From Escherichia coli (GTDB lineage Bacteria; Pseudomonadota; Gammaproteobacteria; Enterobacterales; Enterobacteriaceae): DNA of 64,000 bases. A model generated the notes under the pieces. It did no database searches, had not been told where the DNA came from, and saw nothing but the letters and a program-made list of their open reading frames with translations. Below are positions 5,651-57,852 of this stretch, one piece after another. The stretch lies in NCBI RefSeq assembly GCF_003991155.1, contig NZ_CP031293.1. The stretch is one strand, 5' to 3'. Numbering within the stretch: the first letter of the stretch is position 1; every line of letters starts with the position of its first letter. A program made the translations under genes and the position numbers.

Positions 5651-5862
5651 AACGCTTCCCCACGACCTCTTCGTGGTGACTATCATAACCTGATTTGATT
5701 TCAGCTTCAGAAAAAAGGGCAAAAACTTGTACTTTCATCAGGTTATCAAATGTCCTGTGATCGCCATCGCATATCAACCAACTAGATGGTTGATCTTTTT
5801 ATCATCCAGTCGCAAGCTAATCATCACCAAGGAAACAAAATTCAAAAAAAGAGAGCTATTGT

Positions 5863-14842: not shown

Positions 14843-14877
14843 CAAAAGCAAAACGCCGACCAATGGTCGGCGTTTTT
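14843..14877. terminator. Bidirectional rho-independent terminator between the TRAP operon (+) and rplI (-)
   Basis: GC hairpin cgccgacc-aat-ggtcggcg flanked by an A-run upstream and a T-run downstream, read directly from the sequence. Confidence 0.6.
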
Positions 14878-15941: not shown

Positions 15942-16355
<414 letters not shown>

Positions 16356-16663
16356 TTATTCAGCCTCCTGTCTGGGTCAGCCGAATCCCGGGGAGGCAAG
16401 GAACGTGTTAAAGGTCGGCTGAAAAATGACGCGTTATAGTACTGACATACCCCGCTAAACTCAAGGGCAGAGCCGAAATAAATCTCCCCTTTCGCAAATA
16501 ACCTCTAAACCGCTGATTTGGAGTTCATCACACTTCATCATGGTGTTTTTTTGAACAACTGCATCAGAAATGGTCACCATCAACTTCTTTATCATTGATT
16601 AAAATTAAATCAGAAGATCATCACAGAGGAGAGCACACAAAGTCAGCCGTCGAGGAGGTATCT

Positions 16664-21828: not shown

Positions 21829-22893
21829 ATGAGTAAAGTGAAAAGTATCACCCGAGAATCCTGGATCCTGAGCACTTTCCCGGAGTGGGGTAGCTGGCTG
21901 AATGAAGAAATTGAACAAGAGCAGGTCGCCCCTGGCACATTTGCGATGTGGTGGCTAGGCTGCACCGGGATCTGGCTAAAATCAGAAGGTGGCACCAACG
22001 TTTGCGTTGATTTCTGGTGCGGCACTGGCAAACAAAGTCACGGTAACCCGTTAATGAAACAGGGTCACCAGATGCAGCGCATGGCTGGCGTGAAAAAACT
22101 GCAGCCAAACCTGCGCACCACCCCGTTTGTTCTTGATCCGTTTGCGATTCGCCAGATCGACGCGGTACTGGCGACTCACGATCACAACGATCATATCGAC
22201 GTTAACGTCGCTGCTGCCGTGATGCAGAACTGTGCTGATGACGTACCGTTCATTGGACCGAAAACCTGCGTTGATTTGTGGATTGGCTGGGGTGTGCCGA
22301 AAGAACGTTGCATCGTGGTCAAACCAGGCGATGTCGTTAAAGTGAAAGACATTGAAATTCATGCGCTTGACGCTTTCGACCGTACTGCACTGATCACCCT
22401 ACCTGCCGATCAAAAAGCGGCTGGCGTACTGCCAGATGGCATGGACGATCGCGCAGTAAACTACCTGTTCAAAACCCCTGGCGGTTCCCTGTATCACAGT
22501 GGCGATTCCCACTACTCTAACTATTATGCGAAGCACGGTAACGAACATCAGATCGATGTGGCGTTAGGATCGTACGGTGAGAACCCACGCGGTATTACCG
22601 ACAAAATGACCAGCGCCGATATGCTGCGTATGGGTGAAGCCCTGAATGCGAAAGTGGTTATCCCGTTCCACCACGACATCTGGTCAAACTTCCAGGCCGA
22701 TCCGCAAGAAATCCGCGTGCTGTGGGAGATGAAAAAAGATCGTCTGAAGTATGGCTTCAAGCCGTTTATCTGGCAGGTGGGCGGCAAATTTACCTGGCCG
22801 CTGGATAAAGACAACTTCGAGTACCACTATCCGCGTGGTTTCGATGATTGCTTCACTATTGAACCGGATCTGCCGTTCAAGTCGTTCCTGTAA
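21829..22893 (+). CDS. ulaG: L-ascorbate-6-phosphate lactonase UlaG (metallo-beta-lactamase fold)
   Basis: Start at [21 protein letters not shown] (354 aa); HxHxDH metal-binding motif ([10 protein letters not shown]). Confidence 0.9.
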
Positions 22894-23000
22894 TCTGTCG
22901 TTTATACCGGATAGCGTGGAGTAGTTCGCGCTATCCGGCGTAGTATTTCCTGGCTATTTCAAATATCATCTAAAAAAATCAAATTTTATCGGAATAGCTC

Positions 23001-23756
23001 ATGACTGAAGCACAAAGACATCAAATCCTCCTGGAAATGCTCGCACAATTGGGCTTTGTGACCGTTGAGAAAGTCGTTGAGCGTCTGGGAATTTCGCCTG
23101 CCACTGCACGACGCGATATCAATAAACTTGACGAAAGCGGCAAACTGAAAAAAGTGCGCAATGGCGCAGAAGCTATTACCCAGCAGCGCCCACGCTGGAC
23201 GCCGATGAATCTGCATCAGGCGCAGAATCACGATGAAAAAGTACGTATTGCTAAAGCGGCCTCGCAGCTGGTTAATCCGGGCGAAAGCGTAGTCATCAAC
23301 TGCGGCTCCACCGCGTTTCTGCTTGGGCGGGAAATGTGTGGCAAGCCAGTGCAAATCATCACTAATTATCTACCGCTGGCAAATTACCTGATCGATCAGG
23401 AGCATGACAGCGTGATCATTATGGGCGGACAGTACAACAAAAGTCAGTCCATCACTTTAAGCCCGCAGGGCAGCGAAAACAGTCTCTATGCCGGGCACTG
23501 GATGTTTACCAGCGGCAAAGGGCTGACAGCAGAAGGGTTGTATAAAACCGATATGTTGACGGCAATGGCAGAGCAGAAGATGCTGAGCGTGGTAGGGAAA
23601 CTGGTGGTACTGGTTGATAGCAGTAAGATTGGCGAACGCGCGGGAATGCTTTTTAGCCGTGCCGATCAAATCGATATGCTGATCACCGGCAAAAATGCTA
23701 ACCCGGAAATCCTGCAACAGCTGGAAGCGCAAGGGGTCAGCATTCTGCGTGTTTAA
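23001..23756 (+). CDS. ulaR: DeoR-family transcriptional repressor UlaR
   Basis: 251-aa [46 protein letters not shown] (DeoR HTH). Confidence 0.9.
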
Positions 23757-25437: not shown

Positions 25438-25461
25438 GTATCATCTACTGCAAATGAACAA

Positions 25462-25495
25462 TGCCGGATGCGGCGCGAGCGCCTTGTCCGGCCTA
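25462..25495. repeat. REP (repetitive extragenic palindromic) element
   Basis: gccggatgcggcgcgagcgccttgtccggcctac closely matches the E. coli REP consensus; lies between convergent yjfN and aidB. Confidence 0.55.
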
Positions 25496-25553
25496 CAATT
25501 TTAAAATATTTCATTTAGTTAATCGAAACCAGCGTCGCATCAGTCGTATACGC

Positions 25554-32178: not shown

Positions 32179-32268
32179 TAATGTACTCGTTGTTTACGTT
32201 TTGCCGGGAGCGCCACGCTTGCCCGGCCTACGGATAATTCACCCTCTTCTGTTTGAAGAGGGTAATGA

Positions 32269-34748: not shown

Positions 34749-35174
34749 TCACTCCACCAGCAATAATTTATAAAGCGGTTGATTCTCTTCAACCAAATCG
34801 GCAAGCGTGTAGTTATCCAGTTCCGTAAGAAAACTTTGCACGGCCTTAGAAAGCGCCTGTTTCAACCGACAGGCAGGTGTAATGTGGCAAAACTCACTGC
34901 TGCAATTCACCAGCGATAAGGGCTCCAGCTCGCGCACCACATCACCAATACGTATCGCACTCGCCGGTTTACCCAGACGAATGCCGCCATTTTTTCCACG
35001 AACAGCAGTCACGTAGCCGGCACGACTAAGTTGATTGATTATTTTGACCATATGATTACGGGAGACGCCGTAGACGTCAGTCACTTCAGAAATACTGGTC
35101 ATCCGCCCTTCAGGCAATGACGCCATGTAGATCAGCGCACGTAATCCGTAATCAGTGAAACTCGTTAACTGCAC
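34749..35174 (-). CDS. nsrR: Nitric-oxide-sensing transcriptional repressor NsrR (Rrf2 family)
   Basis: 141-aa [53 protein letters not shown]. Confidence 0.92.
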
Positions 35175-49849: not shown

Positions 49850-50902
49850 TTGAGTAAAAATAAACTCTCCAAAGGCCAGCAGCGCCGCGTGAACGCCAAT
49901 CACCAGCGTCGTCTTAAAACGTCTAAGGAGAAGCCCGACTACGACGACAATCTGTTTGGCGAGCCTGATGAAGGTATCGTCATCAGCCGCTTTGGTATGC
50001 ACGCTGATGTGGAATCCGCAGATGGCGACGTTCACCGCTGCAATATTCGCCGTACCATCCGTTCGCTGGTGACCGGCGACCGCGTAGTCTGGCGTCCGGG
50101 TAAACCGGCGGCGGAAGGAGTAAATGTCAAAGGGATCGTGGAAGCGGTGCATGAGCGCACCTCGGTGTTGACGCGTCCGGATTTCTACGACGGCGTGAAA
50201 CCTATTGCCGCCAACATCGACCAGATTGTCATTGTCTCCGCCATTTTGCCGGAGCTGTCGCTCAATATTATCGACCGTTACCTGGTGGCCTGCGAAACCT
50301 TGCAGATTGAGCCGATTATTGTGCTCAACAAGATAGACCTGCTGGACGACGAAGGCATGGAGTTCGTCAACGAGCAGATGGATATCTACCGCAATATCGG
50401 TTATCGCGTATTGATGGTTTCCAGTCATACTCAGGATGGGCTGAAACCGCTGGAAGAGGCGTTGACCGGGCGCATCAGCATTTTTGCCGGGCAGTCTGGC
50501 GTCGGTAAATCCAGCCTGCTGAACGCGCTGCTGGGGCTGCAAAAAGAGATCCTGACCAACGATGTCTCTGACAACTCGGGTCTCGGTCAGCACACCACGA
50601 CCGCCGCTCGGCTGTATCACTTCCCGCACGGCGGTGATGTGATTGACTCCCCAGGAGTGCGTGAGTTCGGCCTCTGGCACCTGGAGCCGGAACAAATCAC
50701 TCAGGGCTTTGTCGAATTCCATGACTACTTAGGTCTGTGTAAATATCGCGATTGCAAACACGATACCGATCCGGGCTGCGCTATCCGGGAAGCGGTTGAG
50801 GAAGGGAAAATCGCGGAAACCCGTTTCGAAAACTATCACCGTATTCTGGAAAGCATGGCGCAGGTAAAAACGCGTAAAAACTTTTCTGATACGGATGACT
50901 GA
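49850..50902 (+). CDS. rsgA: Small ribosomal subunit biogenesis GTPase RsgA (YjeQ)
   Basis: ORF track starts upstream; conserved N-terminus (M)[20 protein letters not shown] begins at a TTG codon (350 aa); circularly permuted GTPase motifs and C-terminal Zn-finger cysteines. Confidence 0.88.
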
Positions 50903-50997
50903 CAATTAAGCTAACCGTCGTTAGAATCGTCCCCTTTTTTCAGGATCCGGCATGTAGGCCGGATCAGGAACGACAAAACAATGGCCTGGAGGCTACC

Positions 50998-51966
50998 TTG
51001 TTAAATTCATTTAAACTTTCGCTACAGTACATTCTGCCGAAACTATGGCTTACTCGCCTGGCGGGTTGGGGCGCAAGCAAGCGGGCAGGATGGCTGACAA
51101 AACTGGTTATCGATCTGTTCGTTAAATACTACAAGGTCGACATGAAAGAGGCGCAAAAGCCGGATACCGCCAGCTACCGCACCTTTAACGAATTCTTTGT
51201 CCGTCCGCTGCGTGACGAAGTACGCCCAATCGATACCGATCCGAATGTACTGGTTATGCCTGCCGATGGCGTTATCAGCCAGTTGGGTAAAATCGAAGAA
51301 GATAAAATCCTGCAAGCCAAAGGCCACAACTACAGCCTCGAAGCCCTGCTGGCAGGCAACTATCTGATGGCGGACCTGTTCCGCAACGGTACGTTTGTGA
51401 CCACTTACCTCTCCCCGCGTGACTACCACCGCGTACACATGCCGTGCAACGGTATTCTGCGTGAGATGATCTACGTGCCGGGCGATCTCTTTTCCGTTAA
51501 CCATCTCACCGCTCAGAACGTGCCGAATCTGTTTGCCCGTAACGAACGCGTGATCTGCCTGTTCGATACCGAATTTGGCCCAATGGCGCAGATTCTGGTC
51601 GGGGCGACGATTGTAGGCAGCATTGAGACGGTCTGGGCGGGCACCATTACGCCGCCGCGCGAAGGTATCATCAAGCGCTGGACCTGGCCTGCCGGGGAAA
51701 ACGACGGTTCTGTGGCACTGCTGAAAGGCCAGGAAATGGGTCGCTTTAAACTCGGTTCCACCGTTATCAACCTGTTTGCACCGGGTAAAGTGAATCTGGT
51801 TGAGCAACTGGAAAGCCTGTCTGTCACGAAAATTGGCCAGCCGCTGGCAGTATCTACCGAAACCTTTGTTACGCCAGACGCTGAACCCGCCCCGCTTCCT
51901 GCTGAAGAGATCGAAGCAGAACACGACGCCAGCCCATTGGTTGACGACAAAAAAGACCAGGTCTAA
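50998..51966 (+). CDS. psd: Phosphatidylserine decarboxylase proenzyme
   Basis: 322-aa [39 protein letters not shown] with LGST self-cleavage motif near the C-terminus. Confidence 0.93.
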
Positions 51967-51987: not shown

Positions 51988-54900
51988 GTGCGCCTGATTA
52001 TCACTTTTCTGATGGCCTGGTGCCTCAGTTGGGGGGCGTACGCCGCGACGGCCCCCGATAGCAAACAAATCTCACAAGAACTGGAGCAGGCAAAAGCGGC
52101 GAAACCCGCGCAACCGGAAGTCGTAGAGGCGCTCCAGTCTGCCTTAAATGCGCTTGAGGAACGAAAAGGTTCCCTTGAGCGCATCAAGCAATATCAAGAA
52201 GTCATTGATAATTATCCGAAACTCTCCGCTACTCTGCGCGCGCAATTAAACAACATGCGTGACGAGCCGCGCAGCGTGTCACCGGGAATGTCTACCGACG
52301 CGCTGAATCAGGAAATTCTCCAGGTCAGCAGCCAGTTGCTGGATAAAAGCCGTCAGGCCCAGCAAGAGCAGGAACGCGCCCGCGAGATTGCCGATTCGCT
52401 GAATCAACTGCCGCAACAGCAAACCGATGCCCGCCGTCAGTTAAATGAAATCGAGCGCCGCCTGGGGACGCTTACCGGCAATTCCCCGCTCAATCAGGCA
52501 CAAAATTTCGCGTTGCAGTCTGACTCCGCACGCCTGAAAGCGCTCGTCGATGAACTGGAACTGGCGCAGCTGTCCGCCAATAACCGCCAGGAATTAGCGC
52601 GTTTACGCTCAGAGCTGGCGGAAAAAGAGAGCCAGCAACTGGATGCATATTTGCAGGCCTTACGTAATCAGTTGAACAGCCAACGTCAGCTTGAGGCGGA
52701 GCGGGCGCTGGAAAGTACCGAATTACTGGCAGAAAACAGTGCCGATTTGCCGAAAGATATCGTCGCGCAATTCAAAATTAACCGCGAACTATCGGCAGCG
52801 CTGAATCAACAGGCGCAGCGGATGGATCTCGTTGCCTCGCAACAGCGTCAGGCTGCCAGCCAGACGTTACAGGTCCGGCAGGCGTTGAATACGCTGCGTG
52901 AACAGTCGCAATGGCTGGGCTCGTCCAACCTGCTCGGCGAAGCGTTGCGGGCGCAGGTGGCACGGCTGCCGGAAATGCCAAAACCACAACAACTTGATAC
53001 CGAAATGGCGCAGTTGCGTGTGCAACGGTTACGTTATGAGGATCTGCTTAATAAACAGCCGCAGCTAAGGCAAATTCATCAGGCCGACGGTCAGCCGCTG
53101 ACCGCCGAGCAAAACCGTATTCTGGAAGCACAGCTACGCACTCAGCGTGAGTTGCTGAACTCATTGTTGCAGGGTGGAGACACGCTACTGCTGGAACTGA
53201 CCAAGCTGAAAGTCTCCAACGGGCAACTGGAGGATGCGCTGAAAGAGGTGAATGAAGCGACGCACCGCTATCTGTTCTGGACCTCTGACGTGCGCCCAAT
53301 GACCATCGCCTGGCCGCTGGAAATCGCCCAGGATCTGCGTCGTCTCATTTCGCTGGACACCTTCAGTCAGTTGGGCAAAGCCAGTGTGATGATGCTGACC
53401 AGTAAAGAGACAATTTTACCGCTGTTTGGCGCGTTGATTCTGGTCGGTTGCAGTATTTACTCACGCCGCTATTTCACCCGTTTTCTTGAACGTTCGGCGG
53501 CGAAAGTCGGCAAAGTGACTCAGGATCACTTCTGGCTGACGTTACGCACTCTTTTCTGGTCGATTCTCGTCGCGTCACCGCTACCGGTGCTGTGGATGAC
53601 GCTGGGTTACGGCTTGCGCGAGGCGTGGCCTTATCCGCTGGCGGTAGCGATTGGTGATGGCGTAACAGCCACCGTACCGCTGCTATGGGTAGTGATGATT
53701 TGCGCTACCTTTGCCCGCCCGAACGGCTTATTTATCGCTCATTTTGGCTGGCCGCGCGAACGGGTTTCCCGTGGGATGCGCTACTACCTGATGAGCATTG
53801 GGCTTATCGTGCCGCTGATTATGGCGCTGATGATGTTCGATAATCTCGACGACCGCGAGTTTTCCGGTTCGCTGGGACGGCTTTGCTTTATCCTCATTTG
53901 CGGTGCGCTGGCGGTGGTCACTCTCAGTCTGAAAAAGGCCGGGATCCCGCTGTATCTCAACAAAGAAGGCAGCGGTGACAACATTACCAACCATATGCTG
54001 TGGAACATGATGATTGGCGCACCGCTGGTTGCCATTCTGGCGTCGGCGGTGGGTTATCTGGCAACGGCGCAGGCACTGTTAGCGAGGCTTGAAACCTCGG
54101 TTGCCATCTGGTTCCTGCTACTAGTGGTTTATCACGTTATCCGCCGCTGGATGCTGATCCAGCGCCGCAGGCTGGCGTTTGACCGGGCGAAGCATCGCCG
54201 GGCAGAGATGTTAGCGCAACGTGCGCGTGGCGAAGAGGAAGCGCATCATCACAGTAGCCCGGAAGGGGCAATTGAAGTAGATGAAAGCGAAGTCGATCTC
54301 GATGCCATCAGTGCGCAATCCTTGCGGCTGGTGCGCTCAATTTTGATGTTGATCGCCCTGCTTTCGGTCATTGTGCTGTGGTCAGAAATCCATTCCGCTT
54401 TCGGCTTCCTCGAAAATATTTCGCTGTGGGATGTCACCTCCACGGTACAGGGCGTAGAAAGTCTGGAGCCGATTACCCTCGGTGCGGTGCTGATTGCCAT
54501 TCTGGTGTTTATCATCACCACGCAGCTGGTGCGCAACCTGCCCGCGCTGCTGGAACTGGCGATTTTGCAGCACCTGGATTTAACGCCGGGTACGGGCTAC
54601 GCCATCACCACCATCACCAAATATCTGCTGATGCTGATTGGCGGGCTGGTCGGCTTCTCAATGATTGGTATTGAGTGGTCGAAATTGCAGTGGCTGGTCG
54701 CCGCGCTCGGTGTTGGTCTCGGTTTTGGTTTGCAGGAAATTTTCGCCAACTTTATCTCTGGCCTGATCATCCTGTTCGAAAAACCGATTCGCATTGGCGA
54801 TACGGTAACGATCCGCGATCTTACTGGTAGCGTGACGAAAATTAACACCCGCGCCACCACCATCAGCGACTGGGACCGTAAAGAGATAATCGTGCCGAAC

Positions 54901-55311
54901 AAGGCGTTTATTACCGAGCAGTTTATCAACTGGTCGCTCTCTGACTCGGTCACGCGCGTGGTGTTGACGATTCCGGCCCCTGCCGATGCCAACAGTGAAG
55001 AAGTGACGGAAATCCTGCTCACCGCAGCGCGTCGCTGCTCGCTGGTGATCGACAACCCGGCACCGGAAGTCTTCCTGGTGGATCTGCAACAGGGGATTCA
55101 GATTTTCGAGCTGCGTATTTACGCCGCTGAGATGGGTCACCGTATGCCGCTACGCCATGAGATCCACCAGCTAATTCTGGCAGGCTTCCATGCCCACGGT
55201 ATCGATATGCCATTCCCGCCCTTCCAGATGCGTCTGGAAAGCCTCAACGGTAAACAAACGGGGAGAACGCTGACGTCTGCGGGCAAAGGTCGTCAGGCGG
55301 GAAGTTTATAA
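51988..55311 (+). CDS. mscM: Miniconductance mechanosensitive channel MscM (YjeP; MscS family with large periplasmic coiled-coil domain)
   Basis: 1107-aa ORF; signal peptide, Gln-rich coiled-coil N-terminal domain, multiple TM segments and C-terminal MscS domain. Confidence 0.9.
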   Translation: MRLIITFLMAWCLSWGAYAATAPDSKQISQELEQAKAAKPAQPEVVEALQSALNALEERKGSLERIKQYQEVIDNYPKLSATLRAQLNNMRDEPRSVSPGMSTDALNQEILQVSSQLLDKSRQAQQEQERAREIADSLNQLPQQQTDARRQLNEIERRLGTLTGNSPLNQAQNFALQSDSARLKALVDELELAQLSANNRQELARLRSELAEKESQQLDAYLQALRNQLNSQRQLEAERALESTELLAENSADLPKDIVAQFKINRELSAALNQQAQRMDLVASQQRQAASQTLQVRQALNTLREQSQWLGSSNLLGEALRAQVARLPEMPKPQQLDTEMAQLRVQRLRYEDLLNKQPQLRQIHQADGQPLTAEQNRILEAQLRTQRELLNSLLQGGDTLLLELTKLKVSNGQLEDALKEVNEATHRYLFWTSDVRPMTIAWPLEIAQDLRRLISLDTFSQLGKASVMMLTSKETILPLFGALILVGCSIYSRRYFTRFLERSAAKVGKVTQDHFWLTLRTLFWSILVASPLPVLWMTLGYGLREAWPYPLAVAIGDGVTATVPLLWVVMICATFARPNGLFIAHFGWPRERVSRGMRYYLMSIGLIVPLIMALMMFDNLDDREFSGSLGRLCFILICGALAVVTLSLKKAGIPLYLNKEGSGDNITNHMLWNMMIGAPLVAILASAVGYLATAQALLARLETSVAIWFLLLVVYHVIRRWMLIQRRRLAFDRAKHRRAEMLAQRARGEEEAHHHSSPEGAIEVDESEVDLDAISAQSLRLVRSILMLIALLSVIVLWSEIHSAFGFLENISLWDVTSTVQGVESLEPITLGAVLIAILVFIITTQLVRNLPALLELAILQHLDLTPGTGYAITTITKYLLMLIGGLVGFSMIGIEWSKLQWLVAALGVGLGFGLQEIFANFISGLIILFEKPIRIGDTVTIRDLTGSVTKINTRATTISDWDRKEIIVPNKAFITEQFINWSLSDSVTRVVLTIPAPADANSEEVTEILLTAARRCSLVIDNPAPEVFLVDLQQGIQIFELRIYAAEMGHRMPLRHEIHQLILAGFHAHGIDMPFPPFQMRLESLNGKQTGRTLTSAGKGRQAGSL

Positions 55312-55660
55312 GGTTTTGTAGCCGGATAGTCTCATCCGGCTCACCAACAAAACAGATAGCGCAGGGAAAACTGCCACAGCCAATAGAAGAGCATTATTGA
55401 AATAACAAAATATTGCCAAAGAGAGTGCTGTTTCTTCCAAATAACAGCATAAATATATGGGATGAATAATGGTAAGGTCATTATAATACCAACTGGGCGA
55501 ATATCATCATTCTCAAGATATGTCATAACATCACAAACATTATTAATTCCTCTACCGTCGATAAACCACTCTTTGTCTTGAACAGATAAAAAATCTATCC
55601 AAAATATGCTTATAACAAACCAGATAAGGTTAAGGGAAAATGATTTCCAGTTCATCATAG
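55240..55660. repeat. Segmental duplication copy A (mscM 3' end + terminator hairpin + yjeO)
   Basis: DNA-level similarity to 57440..57852 read directly (e.g. acggtaaacaaacggggagaacgctgacgtctgcggg versus acggtaagcaaacggggtgaacgctgacctctgcggc; shared aaggttttgtagc.ggat.gtctcatccggc hairpin). Boundaries approximate. Confidence 0.6.
55341..55658 (-). CDS. yjeO: Small inner membrane protein, YjeN/YjeO paralog family (copy adjacent to mscM)
   Basis: 105-aa ORF with 2-3 TM segments; paralogous to the ORF at 57538..57852 (conserved DKEW, YLENDD, IMTLPLF, YWLWQF, LRY.FC blocks); start overlaps the upstream 237-aa gene (ATGA). yjeO versus yjeN assignment is from K-12 gene order (memory). Confidence 0.7.
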   Translation of the reverse strand: MMNWKSFSLNLIWFVISIFWIDFLSVQDKEWFIDGRGINNVCDVMTYLENDDIRPVGIIMTLPLFIPYIYAVIWKKQHSLWQYFVISIMLFYWLWQFSLRYLFCW

Positions 55661-57439: not shown

Positions 57440-57852
57440 TCAGAACGGTAAGCAAACGGGGTGAACGCTGACCTCTGCGGCTAAAGCGCGCCAGGACGGC
57501 GGTATATAAGGTTTTGTAGCAGGATGGTCTCATCCGGCTACAAACAAAACTGATAGCGCAGAAAAAACTGCCACAGCCAGTAGCCGAAAATCACAAGCGC
57601 GGTGGCATACATAAACCAGCCGCGTTTTTTTCGCCACAAAGCGAACCAGAGAAAAGGGAAAAAGAGCGGTAACGTCATTATCACACCGACATCGCGGGTA
57701 TCATCATTTTCCAGATACTCCAGCACATGGCAGATATTTTTAACCCCACCTTCATCAATCATCCACTCTTTGTCCAGCGTGGAAGTGATGACTATCTAGG
57801 GGATCGCTACAACAAACCAGATGCAGCATAAGACAAACGTGCGCGCACTCAT
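57440..57852. repeat. Segmental duplication copy B (fossil of mscM 3' end + hairpin + yjeN)
   Basis: See copy A; copy B carries about 60 bp homologous to the last codons of mscM although no mscM gene is adjacent. Boundaries approximate. Confidence 0.6.
57538..57852 (-). pseudogene. yjeN: YjeN/YjeO-family small membrane protein with in-frame TAG at codon 19 (possible pseudogene or 74-aa N-truncated product)
   Basis: Reading from ATG at 57852 gives MSARTFVLCCIWFVVAIP-stop(TAG, 57796..57798)-IVITSTLDKEWMIDEGG...; the stop aligns with a Trp in the paralog at 55341..55658; ORF track reports only the 74-aa downstream frame 57538..57762. Confidence 0.5.

Follow-up and report, generated by a model that had tools for sequence, protein, structure and literature searches.

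The palindrome at positions 50944-50965, in the spacer between rsgA and psd of Escherichia coli, probably encodes a stem-loop of the psd-mscM mRNA, placed in its 5' leader and having a post-transcriptional role. We show that it lies in the leader, that it is a single-copy element, that its base-pairing, judged from the comparison of sequences, has been under selection, and that it has no terminator features. In the initial annotation of the window (the whole 64,000-nt stretch of DNA analyzed here) it had been grouped with several other short REP-like palindromes, thought to stabilize or terminate transcripts and to mark the boundaries of rearranged regions. The listed palindromes are ordinary gene-boundary hairpins, except for the psd leader stem-loop, which is of modest interest. 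The psd gene is essential, its product makes the major membrane lipid, and its transcriptional control by sigmaE and CpxR has already been published. What is new is the covariation-supported leader stem-loop, which is absent both from Rfam and from the literature searched, where we found no description of a psd leader structure or of the psd-mscM UTR.

The gene map was taken from the annotation of record NZ_CP029747.1 (E. coli 2016C-3878), whose minus strand is 100% identical to the window, window position x corresponding to 222747 - x in that record. The palindromes at 50944-50965, 22907-22938 and 55321-55340 are present in the window sequence exactly as first listed. The rsgA-psd and ulaG-ulaR spacers separate co-directional genes, and the mscM/yjeO gap of 29 bp is convergent. 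None of the listed hairpins proved too weak to fold, with predicted energies from -9.3 to -23.9 kcal/mol (Table 1).

Table 1. Genes, promoter elements and hairpins of the window, with predicted RNA folding energies (kcal/mol) and z-scores.
Feature	Position	Strand	Description	dG	z
RpsF leader	16335-16419	-	Rfam RF02893, 110 bits; upstream of rpsF		
ulaG	21829-22893	+	Followed by ulaR		
ulaG 3' hairpin	22907-22948 (palindrome 22907-22938)	+	CCGGATAGCG...CGCTATCCGG; 10 perfect pairs, 14 with G.U; loop GUAG; interrupted U-tail; 5' of ulaR	-23.9	-6.9
ulaR	23001-23756	+			
yjfN	ends 25437	+	Convergent with aidB		
REP element	25462-25495	+	Between convergent yjfN and aidB; tail ...CCGGCCTAC; positive control	-20.3	
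aidB	starts 25554	-			
rsgA	49850-50902	+	Followed by psd		
sigmaE promoter of psd	50689-50716	+	GGAACAA-16-TCGAA, in rsgA; read from the sequence, within the RpoE-responsive -391/-229 segment		
CpxR box	50864-50878	+	GTAAA-N5-GTAAA, perfect, in rsgA ORF; read from the sequence and from PMC8138132		
sigma70-type promoter	50899-50927	+	CTGACA-17-TAGAAT, 10/12 match; predicted start ~50934		
Possible lower helix	50927-50973	+	UCGU (50927-50930)/ACGA (50970-50973); CCCCUUUUU becomes a bulge		
Helix extension (weak)	50939-50970	+	UUC...GAA closing a CAGG/CAGG tandem A.G internal loop; MFE folds		
Upper stem-loop, psd-mscM 5' UTR	50944-50965	+	GAUCCGGC/AUGUAG/GCCGGAUC (DNA GATCCGGC/ATGTAG/GCCGGATC), 8-bp perfect stem; fold, covariation, single copy	-14.3	-4.8
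Small SD hairpin	50982-51000 (hairpin 50982-50995)	+	UGGCC/UGGA/GGCUA; holds Shine-Dalgarno GGAGG; then psd TTG		
psd	50998-51966	+			
mscM	51988-55311	+	Convergent with yjeO-family gene		
mscM/yjeO hairpin	55313-55353 (core 55320-55341)	both	GCCGGATAGTCTCATCCGGC at 55321-55340; core stem 8 bp including flanking A/T; outer GUUUUGU/ACAAAAC; fills the 29-bp gap between stops	-12.4 (core)	-4.2 (core)
yjeO-family gene	55341-55655	-			
Degenerate copy of mscM/yjeO hairpin	57518-57539		GCAGGATGGTCTCATCCGGC; 2 substitutions, internal A.G mismatch	-9.3	

Position and structure of the psd leader stem-loop

Dissection of the psd-mscM promoter region by Hassoun et al. (2021; PMC8138132) identified two promoters. 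The distal one is a sigmaE promoter, and the proximal one, P2, drives basal psd expression and responds to activation by CpxR. In that study, the mutations of the sigmaE promoter and of the CpxR box both fell within the rsgA ORF, the latter abolishing CpxR activation of psdP2 and altering Lys340 of RsgA. A fusion spanning -391/-229 responded to RpoE, a P2 fusion spanning -196/+95 was active and CpxR-dependent, and the P2 start was placed 41 nt past the CpxR box and 197 nt past the sigmaE transcription start (PMC8138132). These elements were located in the window (Table 1), with the Lys340 codon at 50867-50869, in the first half-site of the CpxR box. Both published distances put the P2 start at about 50919-50920, a position derived here and not taken from a table of transcription start sites. 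It falls in the spacer of the CTGACA-17-TAGAAT promoter, which is conserved in Enterobacterales out to Proteus, Photorhabdus and Dickeya, and about 14 nt upstream of the start predicted from that promoter; two overlapping promoters may be present at 50899-50940. The predicted start coincides with a conserved run of C4-T6, which has T7 in place of T6 in K-12.

With either start, the stem-loop is part of the leader, 11-25 nt from the 5' end, and it ends 33 nt before the TTG start codon of psd (50998). Its assignment to a transcript end was wrong: both published promoters are upstream of the palindrome, which belongs to the psd-mscM 5' UTR. A terminator is likewise contradicted by the sequence: no U-tract follows the stem on either strand, a T6 run being found upstream instead, and a terminator scan returned no terminator-like site at 50944-50965 on either strand. 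The same scan detected no rsgA terminator in the rsgA-psd spacer. In the Term-seq and Rho tables of Adams (2021), neither a 3' end nor a Rho-termination region is recorded at the corresponding K-12 coordinates (43903xx-43904xx). More generally, the Term-seq data hold no 3' ends at the K-12 equivalents of the four sites, where expression was possibly too low and ula uninduced (Adams 2021). The supplements of Cappable-seq, SMRT-Cappable-seq, Kim 2012 and Cho 2014 contained no coordinates matching the sites.

Folding of the full spacer retains the upper stem-loop in both the MFE and the centroid structure, and folding of the leader retains it whichever candidate start is used. Two conserved CAGGA motifs lie at the base of the stem, and the flanks ...AGG and CAGGAAC on either side of it are conserved. 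In the MFE folds the helix extends below these motifs; alignment pairs 24-58 and 25-57 of this extension are only 60-65% paired, which makes it a weak part of the structure. A possible lower helix, UCGU/ACGA, is paired in 88% of cells with few wobble or compensatory cells, and it is considered tentative since it is mostly invariant. Closer to psd, the small hairpin around the Shine-Dalgarno sequence is 97.7% paired among 26 Enterobacteriaceae, invariant in sequence and free of covariation; as modelled, it would partly sequester the psd Shine-Dalgarno. The E. coli loop ATGTAG (50952-50957) reads as a start codon directly abutting a stop codon, which is probably meaningless, since this reading is not kept in O157 (ATTTAG) or in E. 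albertii (CTCTAC).

Comparative evidence for base-pairing in the leader

The comparative set came from a single scan of representative genomes with Psd, which yielded 80 loci from Escherichia to Vibrio. In every case among the Enterobacteriaceae, the leader has the same order of elements: a -10 box, CGTCCCC-T(5-7), ...AGG followed by the hairpin, CAGGAACGAC...AAAACAATGGCCTGGAGGCTACC, and TTG. The stem within this frame changes between genera. Escherichia and Citrobacter share GATCCGGC/GCCGGATC; the arms are GGTCCGC/GCGGATC in Pseudescherichia, GACCCGCCC/GGGCGGATC in Phytobacter, ACCCGCA/TGCGGGT in Pseudocitrobacter, GATCCGACG/CGTCGGGTC in Kluyvera and AGGCTC/GAGCCT in Pluralibacter. Among E. 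coli and E. albertii sequences, variation is found in the loop, and the stem does not change.

RNAalifold applied to a MAFFT alignment of the leaders missed the variable stem, and the E. coli stem was then scored explicitly and by a covariance model. In the MAFFT alignment, which is blind to structure, the E. coli stem columns were 83% paired, compared to 13-48% when the partner arm was slid, and 6 of the 8 pairs carried double-sided changes; the covariation score was not reached in any of 500 shuffles, a statistic that overstates independence as the compared sequences are phylogenetically related. Realignment with the covariance model, which was built from the MAFFT alignment and leans towards structure, raised these values to compensatory changes in 8/8 pairs and 87.6% of cells paired, 14 of the cells being G.U, with 0/500 shuffles matching. 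The register of the stem is independent of this bias, since it is fixed by the conserved flanks. Taken at the level of sequence, these substitutions show selection on base-pairing in the mRNA sense and not on the sequence itself.

When the leaders were folded singly, a hairpin appeared at the same place in all 24 Enterobacteriaceae, with z below -2 in 19 of them, and the mRNA-sense fold was the more stable strand in 17/23. The strand assignment draws mainly on these fold energies and on gene orientation, because G.U cells in the raw register (10) barely exceed A.C cells (8). Matches to the covariance model were confined to 26 loci, all from Enterobacteriaceae, and none was found among the loci of Erwiniaceae, Pectobacteriaceae, Yersiniaceae, Morganellaceae or Vibrionaceae in the 80-locus set. 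In the first four of these families the promoter is kept without the hairpin, which is thus dispensable for psd expression as such. Rfam has no family for the psd leader, the best matches (E>5) being eukaryotic snoRNA and lncRNA noise, and permissive Rfam scans of the psd, ulaG and mscM/yjeO spacers likewise returned only noise.

Proposed role of the psd leader stem-loop and competing explanations

As a leader element, the stem-loop would be transcribed from the CpxR-activated P2 and from the distal sigmaE promoter, and probably also by read-through from rsgA. A stable leader hairpin without a U-tract would most likely slow 5'-end-dependent decay by RNase E/RppH. A second effect may be to keep the leader fold alike across transcripts from P2, the sigmaE promoter and rsgA read-through, and with a constant fold the invariant Shine-Dalgarno hairpin and the weak TTG start would behave uniformly. 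The psd hairpin resembles leader hairpins of the ompA type in being stable and close to the 5' end, in the precedence of structure over sequence and in having no terminator tail. An ompA-type hairpin must sit within a few nucleotides of the 5' end to protect its mRNA, whereas 10-24 nt, depending on the start, precede the psd stem; as these are unpaired, 5'-terminal protection of the ompA type is less convincing here. If the stem-loop affects stability or translation, reporter fusions with and without it (e.g., the -196/+95 P2 fusion) would read differently, and the envelope-stress control of phospholipid synthesis would have a post-transcriptional component.

A broader reading, which we put forward as a tentative suggestion, is that the hairpin, the CAGGA...CAGGAACGAC flank, the C4-U6 run and the Shine-Dalgarno hairpin together form an undescribed regulatory leader specific to the Enterobacteriaceae. 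Such a leader would add post-transcriptional control of phosphatidylethanolamine synthesis beyond sigmaE and CpxR. The psd leader has in common with curated Rfam cis-regulatory leaders, such as RF02893 (RpsF leader), that it is structured, conserved, clade-restricted and attached to an essential gene, and it differs from them in having no family match. Possible routes of control are the binding of a GGA-recognizing protein, for example CsrA, across the base of the stem, or alternative 5' ends, dependent on the start site or on nucleotides (CTP/UTP), with or without the lower helix. The literature searched gave no support for a link between CsrA and psd. The CAGGA motifs at the feet of the stem occupy 50941-50945 and 50965-50969, a third GGA lies in the Shine-Dalgarno region (50988-50992), and their spacing is CsrA-like.

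The main rival to a psd leader element is a barrier to 3' exonucleases (PNPase/RNase II) that stabilizes the rsgA mRNA and decouples its decay from that of psd, which we regard as unlikely. According to this explanation, transcription would read through from rsgA, followed by cleavage or Rho-dependent release downstream, with the hairpin 41 nt past the rsgA stop codon. Several features are compatible with it: a stable GC-rich hairpin without a U-tract follows soon after a stop codon, as in REPs and intercistronic stabilizers, read-through is likely given the lack of an rsgA terminator in the spacer, and the + sense in which the structure was selected is also the sense of rsgA. However, the hairpin is located 3' of the psd promoter elements and not immediately 3' of rsgA, and its tightly conserved 3' flank (CAGGAACGAC...Shine-Dalgarno) ties it to the psd leader; nor do the Term-seq data contain a 3' end here, though expression may be too low (Adams 2021).

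Much less likely is an attenuator or terminator that limits read-through from rsgA and from the sigmaE promoter by a hairpin pause or by Rho loading. The leader does form a strong nascent-RNA hairpin, and premature 3' ends are numerous in E. coli 5' UTRs generally (Adams 2021), but the U-run is 5' and not 3' of the stem when both strands are considered, terminator-like sites are absent, and neither a 3' end nor a Rho-termination region is listed at 43903xx-43904xx (Adams 2021). Moreover, induction of sigmaE, acting on the distal promoter, raises reporter and Psd levels through the leader region (PMC8138132).

The resemblance to REP elements was assessed by copy number and by local alignment. 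Copy numbers were determined with blastn (word 11, E<=10) in a set of 5426 complete E. coli genomes. As a control, the canonical REP at 25462-25495, which is genuine, was searched as 25458-25499 and found at no fewer than 40 places in each of 5425 genomes. The psd-spacer query (50938-50971) had a median of 1 and a maximum of 2 places per genome, its 34-nt element being at least 99% identical in 4498 genomes and 95-99% identical in 923. The ulaG query (22900-22945) also had a median of 1 place, and the mscM/yjeO query (55309-55346) had 1-2 places, with the exact variant in only 44/5426 genomes. With about 1 place per genome, compared to at least 40 for the true REP, none of the three palindromes is a REP. 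The REP features of the K-12 RefSeq annotation were also looked up, and that annotation could be used neither way because it has no feature even at a textbook REP.

Local-alignment scores, computed against REP consensus sequences and the REP of the window itself, were 55-72 for the true REP; the psd hairpin scored 22-25, and the ulaG and mscM hairpins scored 16-17. None of the three palindromes aligned as the ~35-nt imperfect palindrome of the Y/Z consensus. The psd hairpin alone exceeded the 99th percentile of random windows (p~0.005), and its score is due to a single exact 11-mer of the REP tail, GTAGGCCGGAT, at 50954-50964, which also explains the original impression of a REP. The conserved GTAG/CTAC foot tetranucleotide of REPs, which is the signal for RAYT cleavage, was not found in its proper place in any of the three. 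In the psd hairpin GTAG belongs to the loop and is replaced by TTAG in O157, by CTAC in E. albertii and by GTAT in Citrobacter. In the ulaG hairpin GTAG follows instead of CTAC. The mscM hairpin of this strain carries GTAG-CCGGAT lacking one G, and that of K-12 carries GTGT. The term REP-like is thus apt for the short CCGGAT/ATCCGG arm motif and for the 11-mer in the psd hairpin and fails on repetition. The pattern CCGGAT-N(3-30)-ATCCGG occurs twice in the window, compared to 0.12 expected. Such a shared arm can mislead, and it is copy number that tells true REPs from locus-specific hairpins.

A degenerate or miniature REP, left in the spacer by a RAYT-mobilized element, is accordingly a highly improbable origin of the psd hairpin. 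The hairpin shares with REP/BIME elements (substrates of the RAYT TnpA_REP) a GC-rich extragenic palindrome, the CCGGAT/ATCCGG-type arm common to the psd, ulaG and mscM hairpins, a stable RNA fold without a U-tract and, in E. coli, the 11-mer with its raised alignment score. It differs in being a single copy and not one of hundreds, in its length (22 nt versus ~35 nt), in the position of its unconserved GTAG in the loop, and in its location in a 5' leader and not 3' of a gene. The gradual, compensatory evolution of the stem at one locus across genera, between fixed flanks, is not the pattern of an insertion. A 29-nt sequence in the rlmB-rnr spacer (32203-32231, TGCCGGGAGCGCCACGCTTGCCCGGCCTAC) has a REP-type stem and a CTAC tail; it was rejected as a second REP, having only 1-6 places per E. 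coli genome, and is similar to an Enterobacter-type REP located 3' of mscM in E. asburiae.

Least probable of all is a DNA element, either an operator bound by a dimeric protein or a site sensitive to Dam methylation. The palindrome is perfect, adjoins a promoter and has two GATC sites in its E. coli and Citrobacter arms. Across genera, however, complementarity is kept while sequence is not, whereas an operator would show the reverse; Enterobacter, Kluyvera, Pluralibacter and others have lost the GATC sites, and G.U-compatible substitutions are meaningful only in RNA.

Other hairpins of the window

Perfect palindromes with a stem of 8 bp or more and a loop of 3-14 nt number 16 in the window, compared to 11.3+-3.0 in first-order Markov random sequence, so a single palindrome is unremarkable. 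Their placement differs from chance: 12 of the 16 are intergenic, about 12-fold above the 1.0+-1.05 expected (maximum of 5 in 300 trials) from the 5,610 intergenic bases, or 8.8% of the window. As a class the intergenic palindromes are non-random, yet they are heterogeneous: besides the hairpins discussed here, the 12 include two probable operators (one for NsrR, one of TetR type) and a bidirectional terminator of the textbook kind.

The stabilizing or terminating function proposed for the listed palindromes is plausible for two of them, the ulaG hairpin, which was called terminator-like, and the mscM/yjeO hairpin, whose slot holds terminators elsewhere. The terminator scan flagged the ulaG hairpin on the + strand, where 14 pairs close a loop of 4 nt and the tail is CGUAGUAUUU, and the U-tract of 22907-22938 is marginally that of an intrinsic terminator. 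The hairpin is 5.8 kcal/mol more stable on the + strand (-23.9) than on the - strand (-18.1), and its natural variants pair only in the + sense (A to G giving G.U in K-12, G.U to A-U in D8, G.U to G-C in EH01). The simple reading is a weak intrinsic terminator or 3' stabilizer that insulates ulaR from the ulaG promoter. This promoter is controlled by UlaR, and ulaR is the repressor gene. With intrinsic terminators these hairpins share a GC-rich stem-loop at a gene boundary and, in the ulaG case, a partial U-tail; the psd leader and E. coli mscM/yjeO hairpins differ in having no downstream U-tract on either strand.

The mscM/yjeO hairpin, with its outer pairs, folds at -18.5 kcal/mol on the + strand and -18.9 on the - strand, and the terminator scan found no terminator-like site on either strand. 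In K-12 the stem is the same and the loop unrelated. Elsewhere, the slot 3' of mscM is occupied by canonical A-tract/stem/U-tract terminators (Enterobacter, Serratia, Dickeya and others) and, in Enterobacter asburiae, by a genuine REP. A 3' stem-loop shared by two convergent genes, with a stabilizing or terminating role, is a plausible interpretation. In K-12, a Rho-termination region at 4386122 (+), equivalent to ~55.2 kb in the window, lies ~76 nt past this hairpin in the yjeO sense, antisense to mscM (Adams 2021), so the hairpin is not a complete stop in that sense. The true REP is not a full stop in the yjfN sense either, as a Rho-termination region follows it by ~105 nt, antisense to aidB (K-12 4415796 (-), or ~25.6 kb in the window; Adams 2021).

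The palindrome at 57519-57538, described as a duplicate of that at 55321-55340, is not identical to it: it has two substitutions, one of which breaks a stem pair. Both lie in a 140-nt direct repeat (55246-55386 and 57444-57583, 84-89% identity, 2,198 nt apart), which is made up of the final 66 nt of mscM and the 3' end of a DUF2645 (yjeO-family) gene, together with the hairpin. The 2.2-kb segment between the copies carries a complete yjeO-like gene, an ORF of 237 aa without a Pfam match and an IS630 transposase gene that is frameshifted, and the K-12-type yjeO is 5'-truncated here to 74 aa. The 57.5-kb hairpin is a decayed passenger of the duplication and not a boundary signal. Marking of rearrangement boundaries by palindromes thus holds, trivially, for the 55.3/57.5-kb pair in its repeat; it does not hold for the rsgA-psd and ulaG-ulaR spacers, which are syntenic in >5400 genomes.

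Three further palindromes were noted in spacers of the window. A perfect 10-3-10 palindrome at 1066-1088 (AAGATGCATT-TAA-AATGCATCTT), 27 nt upstream of ytfE, is probably an NsrR operator, whose motif it matches; the nsrR gene is also in the window (34749-35174, - strand). The palindrome at 5773-5794 (ATCAACCA-ACTAGA-TGGTTGAT) lies in the spacer from which a TetR/AcrR-family regulator and an 8-gene operon diverge. The operon (reductase, CoA-transferase, TRAP transporter) is absent from K-12, and the palindrome is probably the operator of the adjacent regulator. Between the convergent TRAP substrate-binding gene and rplI, the palindrome at 14850-14876 (AAAACGCCGACC-AAT-GGTCGGCGTTTT) has the sequence of a textbook bidirectional intrinsic terminator, in contrast to the U-less hairpins. 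Besides three tRNA-Gly genes, the RpsF leader (Table 1) is the sole curated structured RNA in the window.
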